From: a virus
DNA: 64,000 nt
Virus record (IMG/VR): IMGVR_UViG_3300025674_000016
Span: 1 to 64,000 of that record
Strand: one strand, 5' to 3'
Part shown: piece by piece, positions 1,098-19,908 of the stretch
How the letters are laid out: every line of letters begins with the position of its first letter
Numbering within the stretch: the first letter of the stretch is position 1
Position numbers and translations under genes: made by a program
The notes under the pieces: model-generated
Database searches by the model: none
What the model was told of the DNA's origin: nothing
Seen by the model: only the letters and a program-made list of their open reading frames with translations

Positions 1098-2168
1098 ATG
1101 CTATTGAAACGAGGGGACCGCAGCGAAGAAGTCAAAGCGGTTCAAGAAAAACTAAAACAATTAAATTTCTATGCTGGTGGTGTTGACGGCATCTTTGGCC
1201 AAAACACAGATCGGGCAGTTCGTTCTTTTCAGGCTTCACGAGGTCTTCTTGTGGATGGTGTCGTTGGCCCTCAAACAAACGCCGCTTTGCGAAAGGCTAC
1301 AGGGCAAAAAACAGCACCTTCTAGCCCTTTGAAAGCTCCAAGAGGCCAGAACTCCGTTCCACCAACTCACGACAGTATTTCGGCCTGTAGTCACGCTGCA
1401 TGGTCAAGGTATAAAAGTTTTAAAGATTGTTTATTGGGTAGCAACAATACAGGCGAGCATGTTTTCTATGGACCGGGGCGTGGCCTTTTTGAACAAGACA
1501 AATGGGTTGTCTCATATGGCCCAGGCAAGCTAGGCAGAAAAACATGGGCAGTTAAAGGCGGTAAGACAGGCCCAAGCTTGCACTGTTCTAGTTTAACAAA
1601 TTTATTTTTGGGATATCTGCTCAATTATAATGATAAGTGGACACACCAAGGCAATATGCCAGATCAAATGAAAATGTGTTTGCAAGATGATGGGCTGCAC
1701 CCGCTTCCTCAAAATAAAAAGATTAAGTATCGAGGATACGGCGACAATTGCATGCGCCTTGCAAGCAACGGCGATACCGCAGAAAGATGGGGTATTGGCG
1801 GCAAGTTTATGCACAACAGGCTTGATGCCCTTGAAGTCTGGGAGCGCAGAAAAGAACTGGCCACTTTCAATATCTGGGCTCAAAGCACAAAGAAAGGCCG
1901 CTCTTCAAAAATGAAGTGGGACCACCATGTAGGCTTATTTATTTATGACCATGCCGAAGACCGAATGTGGCGATTGGCTGCTGATGGCTATAGGGGCAGT
2001 GGCGGTGCTTATTCTGCAACGCCCGTTCAATATCGTGAAATAGATGCTGCTTGGTCAAAGCAAGACGCAGAAAACAAATTTTATCAGATTATGCGAATTA
2101 TCCCTGATGATGAGCATGGCAATTTTGGATTGGGCAGTGAATCTTTGCCAATGGAGGTTGAGGAGTGA
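1098..2168 (+). CDS. peptidoglycan-binding domain protein with putative Cys-His (NlpC/P60/CHAP-like) hydrolase domain; endolysin candidate
   Basis: N-terminal PG_binding_1 (LKRGDRSEEVKAVQ..L...DGIFG..T..AV..FQ...GL.VDGVVGPQT); later HCSSL and DHHVG motifs; AGGAG SD. Confidence 0.75.
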   Translation: MLLKRGDRSEEVKAVQEKLKQLNFYAGGVDGIFGQNTDRAVRSFQASRGLLVDGVVGPQTNAALRKATGQKTAPSSPLKAPRGQNSVPPTHDSISACSHAAWSRYKSFKDCLLGSNNTGEHVFYGPGRGLFEQDKWVVSYGPGKLGRKTWAVKGGKTGPSLHCSSLTNLFLGYLLNYNDKWTHQGNMPDQMKMCLQDDGLHPLPQNKKIKYRGYGDNCMRLASNGDTAERWGIGGKFMHNRLDALEVWERRKELATFNIWAQSTKKGRSSKMKWDHHVGLFIYDHAEDRMWRLAADGYRGSGGAYSATPVQYREIDAAWSKQDAENKFYQIMRIIPDDEHGNFGLGSESLPMEVEE

Positions 2169-3788: not shown

Positions 3789-4148
3789 ATGAATTGGAAA
3801 ATAGTTCTTATCTCTGCTCTCTTGACAATTGTAGGCCAGATCTTGGTCTGGTTTCAATGCAGCCTGCAATATATTTCTGACTGGTGGAAAGATCACCCCA
3901 CACTCAATATTGTTTTATTTTCCCTTCCCGCAGCCTTTTGCTTTTATTGGGGCTGGACCTATATGGTTCAAGCCACCAATTCTTTATGGGCTGCTAGGCT
4001 AATTGGATTTGCAATTAGCTTTACAGTGTTCCCCTTTATGACGTGGTACTTTGTTGGCGAGAGCATGTTCAGGCCAAAGGTTATGATCTGCATTGTTCTT
4101 GCCATTATTATGATATTGGTTCAACTATTTTATCCGGAGACAAAATGA
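3789..4148 (+). CDS. 4-TM small membrane protein (DMT/EamA-like size)
   Basis: four hydrophobic segments in 119 aa. Confidence 0.75.
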   Translation: MNWKIVLISALLTIVGQILVWFQCSLQYISDWWKDHPTLNIVLFSLPAAFCFYWGWTYMVQATNSLWAARLIGFAISFTVFPFMTWYFVGESMFRPKVMICIVLAIIMILVQLFYPETK

Positions 4149-4369
4149 AGAAGATCAACAGAAAGAAAATGGAAAAAGATTTGTTATTGTTCGCAGAAAA
4201 GTTTGAAGACACAATAGTCGAGTGGCATGAATATGATGCTGCCAGCAAACAAGTTTTTATTTGGGTTGAAGGCAAGTGGGACTTGGACATTAAGTATGAG
4301 CTTAAAGATTATTTGCAAGAAAACTTTCACAATAGAATTCTTGTTAGCAGAATGATTTATAGAGATTAA
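4145..4369 (+). CDS. hypothetical protein (74 aa)
   Basis: ATG 4145 overlaps upstream TGA; GGAG SD. Confidence 0.65.
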   Translation: MKKINRKKMEKDLLLFAEKFEDTIVEWHEYDAASKQVFIWVEGKWDLDIKYELKDYLQENFHNRILVSRMIYRD

Positions 4370-4370
4370 G

Positions 4371-4554
4371 AGGCGTGGGCTACCCAACCCACCGCGCATG
4401 CTGCGCCCACCTGAACAGGGAGACAGGATTTTATACCTGTAAAAGATCAAGTATTCCTGGCTGTCTTATTCCTTGATCCGAGTCGTGTATGCATGTCGCC
4501 AGTAGAACTCTGCGTGTTTTCCGCCGCTCCCCTACCATCAGGGTATCTTCATTT
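4371..4554 (-). ncRNA. candidate structured ncRNA (unassigned)
   Basis: GC-rich intergenic island, several stems, G-U pairs that work only on the minus strand, dedicated promoter directly upstream. Confidence 0.55.
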
Positions 4555-4560
4555 ATAATA

Positions 4561-4589
4561 AATATAACACAGTCACAATATTTTGTCAA
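4561..4589 (-). promoter_or_regulatory. sigma70-type promoter TTGACA-17-TATATT
   Basis: -35 at 4589-4584, -10 at 4566-4561. Confidence 0.8.
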
Positions 4590-4656: not shown

Positions 4657-4929
4657 ATGAAGTTCACCTTTGAGCACGCTAAAACTGTTTTATCTGTCTT
4701 AGTCATTCCTGTTGCCCTTTGGGCTGTCAAGCTAGAAGTTAATAGCGCCGTAATGGCAGAGAACATGTCAAGAATGGAGGCAGATATAGAAGAGGCAAAC
4801 GAGATCAGCGCAGTTGTCCAACAAAATAAAGTAACACTTGCCCTACTAAAGGAGAGGCTAGACAATGCCAATGAAACTCTCAAAGACATTAAGGATATTC
4901 TCAGGGATCGCGTTCGTCCTGTTGATTAG
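4657..4929 (+). CDS. single-TM coiled-coil protein
   Basis: N-terminal hydrophobic helix, heptad pattern, GGGAG SD. Confidence 0.75.
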   Translation: MKFTFEHAKTVLSVLVIPVALWAVKLEVNSAVMAENMSRMEADIEEANEISAVVQQNKVTLALLKERLDNANETLKDIKDILRDRVRPVD

Positions 4930-6486: not shown

Positions 6487-7076
6487 AAATGCAAAACTTA
6501 TTTGAAGGCTTCAGAAAATGGTCAAATGAAAAGCCTATTATTTCTGAGGCTCTTCAGTATCACATAGATCACGATGTTGGAATTGATAGAAATGTATTCA
6601 GGCCGGGATCTAAAGAGTTTTTATCTTTATTCAAAGAAGTTAGAGATCTCTATAATAAAGGCCAATACAAACTAAACGAAGGTGAAGAATATTATATTCT
6701 CGAAACAGACATAGGCGAATACGCTTTATATGAAGGCGAGATGGTCCCTCTTGATATGCCGATGCCGATTGAGGAAGCTAAAAAGAGGCGTAAAAAAAAG
6801 AAAAAGAAAAACCCTCCTCTCAACAAACCTTCGCTAAACACAGGCGGCGGCAAAAAGTGGAAAGTCTTTGTTCGAAGTAAATCAGGTGGTGTTAAAAAAG
6901 TTACCTTTGGAGACAAGAAAGGCGGATTGAAAGGCAACTGGAATGATCCAAAAGCTCGCGCATCTTTTGCAAAAAGACACAAGTGTGCAGAGAAAAAAGA
7001 TAAAACCAAAGCAGGCTACTGGTCTTGTAGGGCACACAAATACTTTGGCAAGAATGTCCCAGGCCGTTTCTGGTGA
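6483..7076 (+). CDS. phage protein with basic C-terminal module (KKWKVFV...VKKVTFGD...ARASFAKRHKC)
   Basis: MKMQNLFEGFRKW leader; IEE-A-KKRRKKKKKK junction. Confidence 0.85.
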   Translation: MKMQNLFEGFRKWSNEKPIISEALQYHIDHDVGIDRNVFRPGSKEFLSLFKEVRDLYNKGQYKLNEGEEYYILETDIGEYALYEGEMVPLDMPMPIEEAKKRRKKKKKKNPPLNKPSLNTGGGKKWKVFVRSKSGGVKKVTFGDKKGGLKGNWNDPKARASFAKRHKCAEKKDKTKAGYWSCRAHKYFGKNVPGRFW

Positions 7077-13786: not shown

Positions 13787-14776
13787 ATGATTGTAGACGT
13801 TATCGTAGACTTACAGTATGGCGATTGTGGCAAGGGAAAAGTAACTCATCACCTCTGCAAGAAGGGTAAATACACCCATGTTGTTAGATATAACGGTGGA
13901 TGTAATGCGGGACACACAATTTATCACGAAGGAAGGAAGTTTGTAACCCATCACATCCCTGCTGGCGTCTTTTTTGGCGTTAAATCGGTCATTGGACCTG
14001 GTTGTGTTGTTAATGTTGATCGTTTTTTCGAAGAAATGGACATGTTAAGGGATGGAGGCATCCCCTATCTTGAAGATTTAGTTAAAATTGCTAAGAATGC
14101 ACACATTATTACAGACGAACATGTTAACTCAGACTCATCTGACACTAGTATTGGCACCACAAAGCGTGGTAATGGTCCTGCATATGCCGCTAAGTACGCC
14201 AGAACAGGGGTCAGGGCAGAAGATGTAAGAGAATTACAGCCTTATTTGGTTGATTTCTTTGAAGAAATGCATCAAAAGGACACTATTGCCCTGTTTGAAG
14301 GCGCTCAGGGCTTTGGTTTGGACGTTGATTGGGGTGATTACCCTTATGTTACCTCCTCTCACTGCACTGTTGCAGGTGCAATGCTCAATGGCATACCTCC
14401 AAAAGCCATTAGAAACGTTTGGGGAGTGGCAAAGTGCTATGAAACATACGTTGGAGCAAAGGATTTCGGTGGTGATGACCCTATTTTCGACACAATCTGC
14501 GAATTAGGACAAGAATATGGCGCTACAACGGGTAGAAAGCGCCAAGTTAACTGGATGGAGTGGGAATTACTCGAAAAAGCGGTTAAAATCAACGGTGTAA
14601 CCCATTTGGTGGTCAATAAAATGGATATTTTAAGCGAAATACAGCGTTGGAGCCTGTTTTGCAACAAAATTAAGCATAGTTTCCCCTCAGAGCAGTCATT
14701 TAAGACATATTTTGAAGAAAAGTTAGGAGAAACAGGCATTTCCATCTATTTTTCTGGTGATAAGGGTCGTATTTAG
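13787..14776 (+). CDS. purA: adenylosuccinate synthetase (short form)
   Basis: QYGDCGKGK, RYNGGCNAGHT, IGTTKRGNGPAY, FEGAQG, YPYVTSS, GATTGRKR, NKMD. Confidence 0.95.
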   Translation: MIVDVIVDLQYGDCGKGKVTHHLCKKGKYTHVVRYNGGCNAGHTIYHEGRKFVTHHIPAGVFFGVKSVIGPGCVVNVDRFFEEMDMLRDGGIPYLEDLVKIAKNAHIITDEHVNSDSSDTSIGTTKRGNGPAYAAKYARTGVRAEDVRELQPYLVDFFEEMHQKDTIALFEGAQGFGLDVDWGDYPYVTSSHCTVAGAMLNGIPPKAIRNVWGVAKCYETYVGAKDFGGDDPIFDTICELGQEYGATTGRKRQVNWMEWELLEKAVKINGVTHLVVNKMDILSEIQRWSLFCNKIKHSFPSEQSFKTYFEEKLGETGISIYFSGDKGRI

Positions 14777-18659: not shown

Positions 18660-18664
18660 ATAAA

Positions 18665-18779
18665 TCCTGAATAGCACTCATTGTCTATAACGAGGGCGGT
18701 ATAAAGGGGGTGATCCAATTCCTAAATAGAAGATAGGCTGGTGTTGCCGCACACGAGAAGATAGTATTTAATATCAGGA
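18665..18779 (+). ncRNA. candidate rod-like structured RNA upstream of tmRNA
   Basis: terminal TCCTGA/TCAGGA, inner GCGGTA/TGCCGC; 5' end coincides with the predicted TSS. Confidence 0.4.
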
Positions 18780-18797
18780 GCTATCAGCGGCTATTTT

Positions 18798-19101
18798 GGG
18801 GGTGACTTGGTATCGACTGGGTACGGAATTAGTTCTTGCAAGGAAGTTTGAGCAAACTTTAAAAAGTTCAACCATTTTAATTGACGAAAGCCAATTCGAA
18901 TACGCAATGGCCGCTTGAGGTCTTGCTGGGGTGGCAACAGCCCTATTATCCAAAGTTGCGAAAATAAAGGTTCGTTTACTTTCCTTTTCCAAAAGTAAAC
19001 AATCGTTTACTTTGCTTGTTGGAGCACTAAACCAACTAACCTTGTGAATGAAAGAACAAAGTGAAGTATTTAGGACGCGGGTTCGAATCCCGCCTCCTCC
19101 A
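18798..19101 (+). ncRNA. ssrA: tmRNA, tag (A)DESQFEYAMAA
   Basis: GGGGGTG/CTCCTCC-A acceptor with G3-U70; TCGAC D-loop region; GCGGG-TTCGAAT-CCCGC T arm; tag frame 18883-18918 after TAATT. Confidence 0.95.
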
Positions 19102-19908
19102 TTAGTTAAGAAAATCTCGTCTTAAAAGTAATTCGCGGTGGTCCCACACCTCTCTCTCATAGAATCTTCTAAGAGAGTCGTAACTCGGTGAGTACACAAT
19201 AAAATTAAATCTTGTGTTCATCATGGACACGAGACCTACGACCTCGCCTCTTTGGTTCATAATGGCGCTACCTGAAGATCCGCCTGTAACAGGCAAACTA
19301 TAAACCGAAAGGTTTGCTTCTGGGTCATAGCCGTTAAAGAAACCATCAGTAATAAAAGGAGCATTCTTATGGAGAATCCCAGCAGGAGCAGCCACATTTA
19401 ATATTCTATCTCCTGGTCTAGGAGCATGAGCAGCAATCTTTAGTTTCGGCCTCTCCAGATCCTTTGCATAAAGCAAACAGAGATCACCTTTTTTATCCAT
19501 TCTGATTACTTTAGTTGTAAACTTTTTTCTTTCTTTGGTGATCGCACTTACTTCTAATCCAGCAGTAATGCTTAGTCCTTTTGAAGTAAATTTGTTTGGA
19601 AGTTTCTGAGGTTCACAGACATGTGCAGCAGTGGCAACATAAGAACCTTGAATATCTGAATGTTCGATCACAAATCCAGAACCAAATACAAGAGGAATAC
19701 TTTCAGAATGACAACTTTTTGTTAGTTCGTCGCAGATGTTTGCAATTACTGATGTTTCAAGCATAACAAAAGCATCTCGCGCTCTGTCCAGTGGTGTGTT
19801 ATACTTGGAATCATCAGCGTCCACATTGGATGCATGGACGCAGGAGGTTGTGAACATTGAGATCAAAAGCACCTTTAAGAAGATTAGATCAAAAGTTCTT
19901 TTAAACAT
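19102..19908 (-). CDS. trypsin-like serine protease with signal/lipoprotein-like N-terminus
   Basis: GSGF, TAAHVC, DLCLL, GGSSGSAI; GGAGG SD before ATG 19908. Confidence 0.9.
   Translation of the reverse strand: MFKRTFDLIFLKVLLISMFTTSCVHASNVDADDSKYNTPLDRARDAFVMLETSVIANICDELTKSCHSESIPLVFGSGFVIEHSDIQGSYVATAAHVCEPQKLPNKFTSKGLSITAGLEVSAITKERKKFTTKVIRMDKKGDLCLLYAKDLERPKLKIAAHAPRPGDRILNVAAPAGILHKNAPFITDGFFNGYDPEANLSVYSLPVTGGSSGSAIMNQRGEVVGLVSMMNTRFNFIVYSPSYDSLRRFYEREVWDHRELLLRRDFLN

Follow-up and report, generated by a model that had tools for sequence, protein, structure and literature searches.

A conserved structured RNA of uncultured marine T4-like phages and its counterpart inside a phage tmRNA

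INTRODUCTION

The manA RNA is nearly confined to marine sequences and T4-like cyanophages and is a riboswitch candidate without a known ligand (PMC2864571), whose role is still unverified (PMC9964418). A second kind of structured RNA, the tmRNA, is encoded frequently by marine myophages, and the 3′ part of the Melnitz tmRNA gene is reported to carry a glutamine-riboswitch-like element (PMC9004378), which sets a precedent for accessory folded domains in phage tmRNAs. Phage T4 itself has small stable RNA genes, rnaC and rnaD (species 1 and 2), among its tRNA, lysozyme and internal-protein genes. The rnaC RNA is processed from the tRNA transcript.

Here we describe an RNA encoded on the minus strand of a 64,000-nt stretch of viral DNA (the window), which is the first 64 kb of the 155.7-kb IMG/VR virus record IMGVR_UViG_3300025674_000016. 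Its setting resembles that of rnaC and rnaD, in that the window RNA lies near genes for an endolysin and leader-tagged proteins and the copy at locus L015 abuts tRNA genes. However, rnaC has a tRNA-type T arm and sits directly beside tRNA genes, whereas the window RNA has its own promoter. A relationship with rnaC or rnaD was rejected, as searching the tRNA region of T4 with the model unfiltered gave 7.9 bits at best, which is noise. With manA the RNA has in common its occurrence in marine T4-type phages and, it appears, a purine-rich/pyrimidine-rich closing helix around four branches.

RESULTS

The RNA lies in a gap between plus-strand genes

The window phage carries T4-type baseplate genes, and distant relatives occur among Flavobacterium, Microcystis and cyano-myophages. 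Its endolysin has a peptidoglycan-binding domain, and seven tRNA genes are located at 151.8-155.3 kb of its genome. The RNA locus is a 287-nt gap between the genes at 4145-4369 and 4657-4929, inside a long run of plus-strand genes, and the RNA is present as a single copy in the 155.7-kb genome. The features of the region, together with the tmRNA gene discussed below, are as follows.

3789-4148, plus strand: mem119, gene for a 119-aa membrane protein with four predicted helices; within about 1 kb of the RNA, on either side, in seven distinct sequence types
4145-4369, plus strand: p74, a 74-aa gene flanking the RNA and convergent with it
4355-4374, minus strand: pyrimidine-rich tail after helix P7; may act as a weak terminator in the window phage
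4372-4553, minus strand: conserved structured RNA, from covariance model matches and covariation; predicted start at about 4553-4556, conserved part ending just after P7
4561-4589, minus strand: promoter with -35 box TTGACA (4589-4584), 17-nt spacer and TG-extended -10 box TATATT (4566-4561); 11 of 12 matches
4657-4929, plus strand: a 90-aa gene, the other flank of the gap
18798-19104, plus strand: short tmRNA of the window phage, 307 nt, from a tmRNA gene search; no functional link to the RNA is implied by its listing

The mem119 protein has no Pfam or PHROG family and is 56-98% identical across marine contigs. Elsewhere in the window, the protein encoded at 13787-14776 (plus strand) matches phrog_1211, '2-aminooxy adenylosuccinate synthetase' (E 9e-73). 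We take this product to be PurZ-like, a hint of a 2-aminoadenine (Z-base) genome.

Homologues come from marine metagenomes

Several direct searches were empty. IMG/VR scans with the 90-aa, 119-aa and endolysin proteins singly returned no relatives, and an exact 37-mer together with a strict two-part pattern gave no match in the same database. Searching cultured phages by blastn yielded nothing beyond AT-rich promoter-like matches to Streptococcus phages; the AT-rich promoter region at 4578-4632 matches Streptococcus thermophilus phage intergenic DNA at 80-90%, which is probably a compositional or promoter-like chance similarity.

Homologues of mem119 in marine metagenomes led, through their contigs, to a homologous intergenic element in L006, and a pattern of two invariant cores then revealed six further loci in JGI metagenomes. 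A covariance model built from the window, its 98% twin L009 and a hand-drawn structure added copies in L002, L003 and L010, while L025 and the distant L027/L030 came from an IMG/VR scan for the invariant pattern of the P4 loop. The same loop pattern matched none of the GTDB genome contigs, so that no bacterial or prophage copy is known. The resulting set holds eleven homologues from marine metagenomes and viromes, all of them metagenomic sequences, and represents about seven independent lineages. Covariance model scores were 108-259 bits for full-length free-standing homologues and 90 bits for a copy embedded in a tmRNA, truncated copies scoring lower. Hardly anything but the RNA can still be aligned to the window phage genome in L015 and L018.

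The initial annotation had recognised no tRNA, SRP, RNase P or hammerhead signature at this locus, and in a comparison with Rfam no family reached threshold on 4371-4589. An invariant 20-mer of the RNA had no match in the literature searched, which did not include the candidates of the 2023 viral structured-RNA catalogue. The RNA appears to found a new family, so far seen only in uncultured marine T4-like myophages.

A five-way junction with a kissing helix is kept by compensatory changes

The alignments define the following elements, all on the minus strand.

4410-4542: core domain, in which P1 and P2 close a five-way junction bearing P2a, P3, P4 and P5; the part common to the L030 tmRNA copy
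4542-4538 and 4532-4527 with 4422-4417 and 4414-4410: long-range P1+P2, conserved
4524-4522/4514-4512: P2a, conserved
4510-4506/4484-4480: P3, conserved
4478-4472/4451-4445: P4, conserved
4440-4436/4427-4423: P5, conserved
4502-4498 (P3 loop) with 4461-4457 (P4 loop): 5-bp loop-loop kissing helix, spanning 4457-4502, 100% paired
4406-4402/4398-4394: P6, a 3′ hairpin, covarying
4392-4386/4381-4375: P7, a 3′ hairpin with a conserved loop sequence, covarying; absent in the tmRNA-embedded copy

Every stem listed in the initial annotation (P4, P5, P6, P7 and the long-range P1+P2) is present and conserved, and P2a, P3 and the covarying kissing helix, absent from that list, are added here. Collecting homologues and examining covariation, as that annotation had proposed, gave clear results. 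Structure-blind alignment by MAFFT followed by RNAalifold recovered P1-P7 as drawn by hand. In this alignment of nine homologues, standard pairs fill 95.3% of cells and both sides have changed in 18 of 47 pairs; when the 3′ partners were slid by 1-3 columns, only 30-44% remained paired with 1-4 double-changed pairs, and no shuffle attained the real values. The model-fitted alignment of all eleven homologues shows 96% pairing, with changes on both sides in 24 of 48 pairs. The kissing helix, which lies outside the alignment model, shows compensatory double changes at two positions and a G-C to G.U change at one. The folding energy of the single sequence is no better than that of shuffles (minus strand, z = -0.87; plus strand, z = -1.85). 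The strand was also claimed from wobble pairs that are G-U only on the minus strand, and indeed two U.G pairs, which the plus strand would turn into A.C mismatches, occur unchanged in every homologue, placing the RNA on the minus strand. It is close to certain that the locus encodes a real, selected and independently transcribed structured RNA.

The preserved fold bears directly on the idea of a decaying tmRNA or manA remnant without present function. Homology to a tmRNA-internal domain and a location in a rearrangement-prone region would fit such decay, but compensatory changes keep the helices in lineages with flanking proteins too divergent to be recognised as related, and the position of the promoter is conserved too. 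This reading was already disfavoured, and we find it hardly credible.

The P3 and P4 loops do not vary, nor do several bases of the junction, and this holds for the most distant copy too. A palindrome in the P3 loop was considered as a dimerisation site and rejected, because neither L002 nor L030 preserves it. Taken together, a compact junction, a tertiary loop-loop contact and invariant unpaired bases suggest recognition of a protein, the ribosome or a small ligand by shape. The same compact junction, tertiary helix and invariant unpaired nucleotides could belong to a catalytic RNA, a new self-cleaving or other ribozyme; however, the RNA matches no Rfam ribozyme family and contains no conserved cleavage-site context that we recognise, making catalysis highly improbable.

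A 6S-like decoy of RNA polymerase, a role floated in the initial annotation, would agree with the length of about 185 nt, which is similar to that of 6S RNA, with a strong promoter of its own and with the phage origin. The fold does not support it: 6S RNA is a rod with a central bubble, whereas this RNA is a branched five-way junction with kissing loops and two 3′ hairpins, and no 6S model matched it even at E<=10. A decoy function is thus extremely improbable. A protein sponge, also named in that annotation, is a conceivable role. Bacterial Y RNA was considered as well; there is no YrlA match on the RNA and no TROVE domain in the 155.7-kb genome.

The RNA has its own promoter and no conserved reading frame

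The minus-strand promoter reported initially stands where it was described, and its -10 box proved to be TG-extended. Across the region, five promoter-like sites were found against 4.9 expected in shuffles, i.e. no excess. Among the free-standing loci, all ten examined have a sigma-70-type promoter with 9-11 of 12 matches, and 7-10 nt separate the end of its -10 box from the conserved 5′ end of the RNA. In most of the free-standing homologous loci the -35 box is TTTACA, which we take to be of the T4 early-promoter type, making early expression of the RNA likely.

The window copy has no canonical terminator in a terminator scan, only the P7 hairpin and the pyrimidine-rich tail. Terminators made of a hairpin and a U-run are clear in L024 and L018, 10-45 nt past P7, and weaker in L006, L025, L002 and L015. 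Downstream of the RNA, a conserved long hairpin followed by a common short motif was observed in L025 (about 6935-6990) and, just past the RNA terminator, in L002 and L024; this element may be one of several promoter/stem-loop cassettes in the variable region.

The RNA lacks coding capacity. The short frame MKIP*, noted in the initial annotation, is present and is not conserved among the homologues, and no reading frame is open in all of them, in agreement with the non-coding status claimed there.

Genomic contexts vary around the RNA

The RNA shifts position within one variable neighbourhood and is found to either side of the mem119/p74 pair. It lies downstream of p74, with which it converges, in the window, L006 and L010, whereas in L025, L002, L013 and L024 it is upstream of and divergent from mem119. 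A co-directional ORF follows the RNA in L025 and L002. In L015, the RNA is directly upstream of, and on the same strand as, genes for tRNA-Ile(tat), tRNA-Met and tRNA-Leu(taa) (1519-1753, minus strand). The same three tRNAs cluster at 154.9-155.3 kb of the window genome; were the record circularly permuted, they would lie about 5 kb away from the RNA.

These varied contexts argue against a fixed cis-regulatory or antisense role. Antisense regulation of the convergent 74-aa and 119-aa genes by read-through is conceivable from the window, where the transcript is directed into 4369-4145 with no strong terminator between, and from L006 and L010, which are arranged alike. However, in the four divergent loci the RNA is directed away from these genes, and a conserved five-way junction with covarying helices is not needed for antisense pairing, so we regard this explanation as very unlikely. 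Alternatively, the RNA may be a leader or riboswitch controlling the downstream gene, as has been proposed for manA. The co-directional ORFs in L025 and L002 would suit such a role, as would sub-threshold manA matches and the position of canonical manA in P-RSM6, both described below. On the other hand, the RNA faces a convergent gene in the window, L006 and L010 and precedes tRNA genes in L015, the L030 core is part of a tmRNA, and a terminator-like hairpin with U-runs separates the RNA from the sequence that follows. A cis-acting leader is therefore quite unlikely.

The RNA resembles manA below the family threshold

An E-value scan of seven homologous loci detected manA (RF01745) in two, L015 at 26.7 bits and L006 at 23.3 bits. 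Both matches coincide with the RNA in position and strand, and both are far below the gathering score of 55.2 bits; the window copy gave no match to RF01745 at E<=10. The RNA is not a member of manA by the curated threshold. For comparison, canonical manA of cyanophage P-RSM6 scores 188 bits and lies 27 nt upstream of talC. In the reverse direction, family models R1 and R2 gave nothing significant against canonical manA and three cyanophage genomes.

The manA alignment is colinear with our structure, its closing helix corresponding to P2, its first branch to P2a, and its last hairpin and 3′ tail to P5 and the following sequence, with the middle branches skipped. The first branch and the 3′ tail are similar in the two RNAs and the loop of the last hairpin is very similar. 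They differ in the middle branches, a four-way sub-junction and a long hairpin in manA and two hairpins joined by the kissing helix in the RNA. P1, an additional outer helix, and the 3′ hairpins P6 and P7 set the RNA apart as well. Position separates them too: the RNA does not lie in a 5′ UTR but has a convergent neighbour, adjoins tRNA genes or lies in the interior of a tmRNA. We consider it roughly an even call whether the RNA and manA share a common ancestor. The resemblance to manA, combined with contexts that cannot be cis-regulatory, casts doubt on the riboswitch reading of manA itself.

The core has a homologue inside a phage tmRNA

The most distant relative of the RNA is not free-standing. 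The copy in L030, identical in L027, scores 90 bits (E 3e-26) with the covariance model, and many compensatory changes have left its P1-P5 and kissing helix intact. Around it, the tmRNA model gives a full-length match to an unusually long tmRNA of 485 nt (RF00023, 85.8 bits against a cut-off of 47; L030 4850-5334, minus strand), where the homologous core occupies the stretch of PK3/PK4 in a branched domain of about 185 nt. As read from sequence and alignment, the acceptor stem of this tmRNA has 7 bp with G.U as the third pair, a T arm and a 3′ CCA end are present, and the tag frame finishes with ALAA. The embedded form is a single sequence type present on two contigs. The L030 tmRNA gene is directly upstream of an endolysin gene and was missed by ARAGORN and detected by Rfam. 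The core of the free-standing RNA is homologous to the domain standing in for pseudoknots 3-4 in this tmRNA from a related phage, and the embedded core is the first clue to the function of the RNA. We know of no other case in which one RNA module exists both as its own gene and grafted into a tmRNA, and we found no published one.

The window RNA is itself no tmRNA. Neither ARAGORN nor Rfam reports a tmRNA match at 4371-4589, the P7 loop is not a T loop, and the RNA has neither a tRNA-like domain nor a tag frame, being a separate gene 14 kb from the phage's own tmRNA. No SmpB gene was found in the window phage genome.

In the window phage (G000) the tmRNA is 307 nt long and in G001 it is 279 nt, and in each the distance to the free-standing RNA is 14.3 kb. 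These two genomes are the only records covering both loci, fragment G004 being uninformative. The pattern raises the possibility of a split trans-translation RNA, in which the free RNA is an accessory domain that works with the phage's shortened tmRNA on the ribosome. The presence of the core within the 485-nt tmRNA of L030/L027, and the coexistence of short tmRNAs and free RNA at equal spacing in G000 and G001, speak for such a division. However, the pattern comes from only two genomes, and no RNA:tmRNA complementary stretch is conserved across the two available pairs (window phage and G001). In addition, long and short tmRNAs share little sequence when compared by eye and are therefore probably not close orthologues. 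A split tmRNA is a specific minority version of a role in translation or ribosome rescue, and we think it unlikely. One candidate contact, pairing of the 5′ leader with the D-loop region of the tmRNA, is present in the window and was rejected because it is not kept in G001.

DISCUSSION

The reading we put forward is that of a trans-acting, free-standing non-coding RNA of about 185-230 nt that would bind a factor, possibly of the translation or ribosome-rescue machinery; we give this an even chance of being right. Such an RNA would act in trans early in infection and would work through its three-dimensional fold, binding a protein or a small ligand rather than pairing as antisense with a neighbouring gene. 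Because the module occurs free-standing, inside a tmRNA and beside tRNA genes, its most likely target would be the translation or ribosome-rescue apparatus. By descent, it would probably belong with the manA-type cyanophage RNAs as a distant structural variant.

A broader scheme would unite the three occurrences as one portable module directed at the ribosome or ribosome rescue, fused into a tmRNA in some phages, free beside a truncated tmRNA in others, and present in mRNA leaders as the related manA form. We hold this to be improbable as a whole. If it were true, the free RNA would be either the missing domain of a functionally split tmRNA or a modulator of host translation in trans, and manA would be a ribosome- or factor-binding element and not a metabolite riboswitch.

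A module that exists both free and grafted into a tmRNA offers a concrete experimental handle. The family adds to phage biology a well-supported RNA with a complex fold, and such folds usually mark specific biochemical jobs. It also shows that marine T4-like phages have more stable-RNA genes in their variable tRNA/lysis/internal-protein region than annotation would lead one to expect.

A further conserved element was observed at the tmRNA locus. The leader that precedes the short tmRNA (window 18660-18797, roughly 130 nt; L034) is conserved between the window phage and G001, and it holds a second copy of a motif resembling the 5′ end of the tmRNA.
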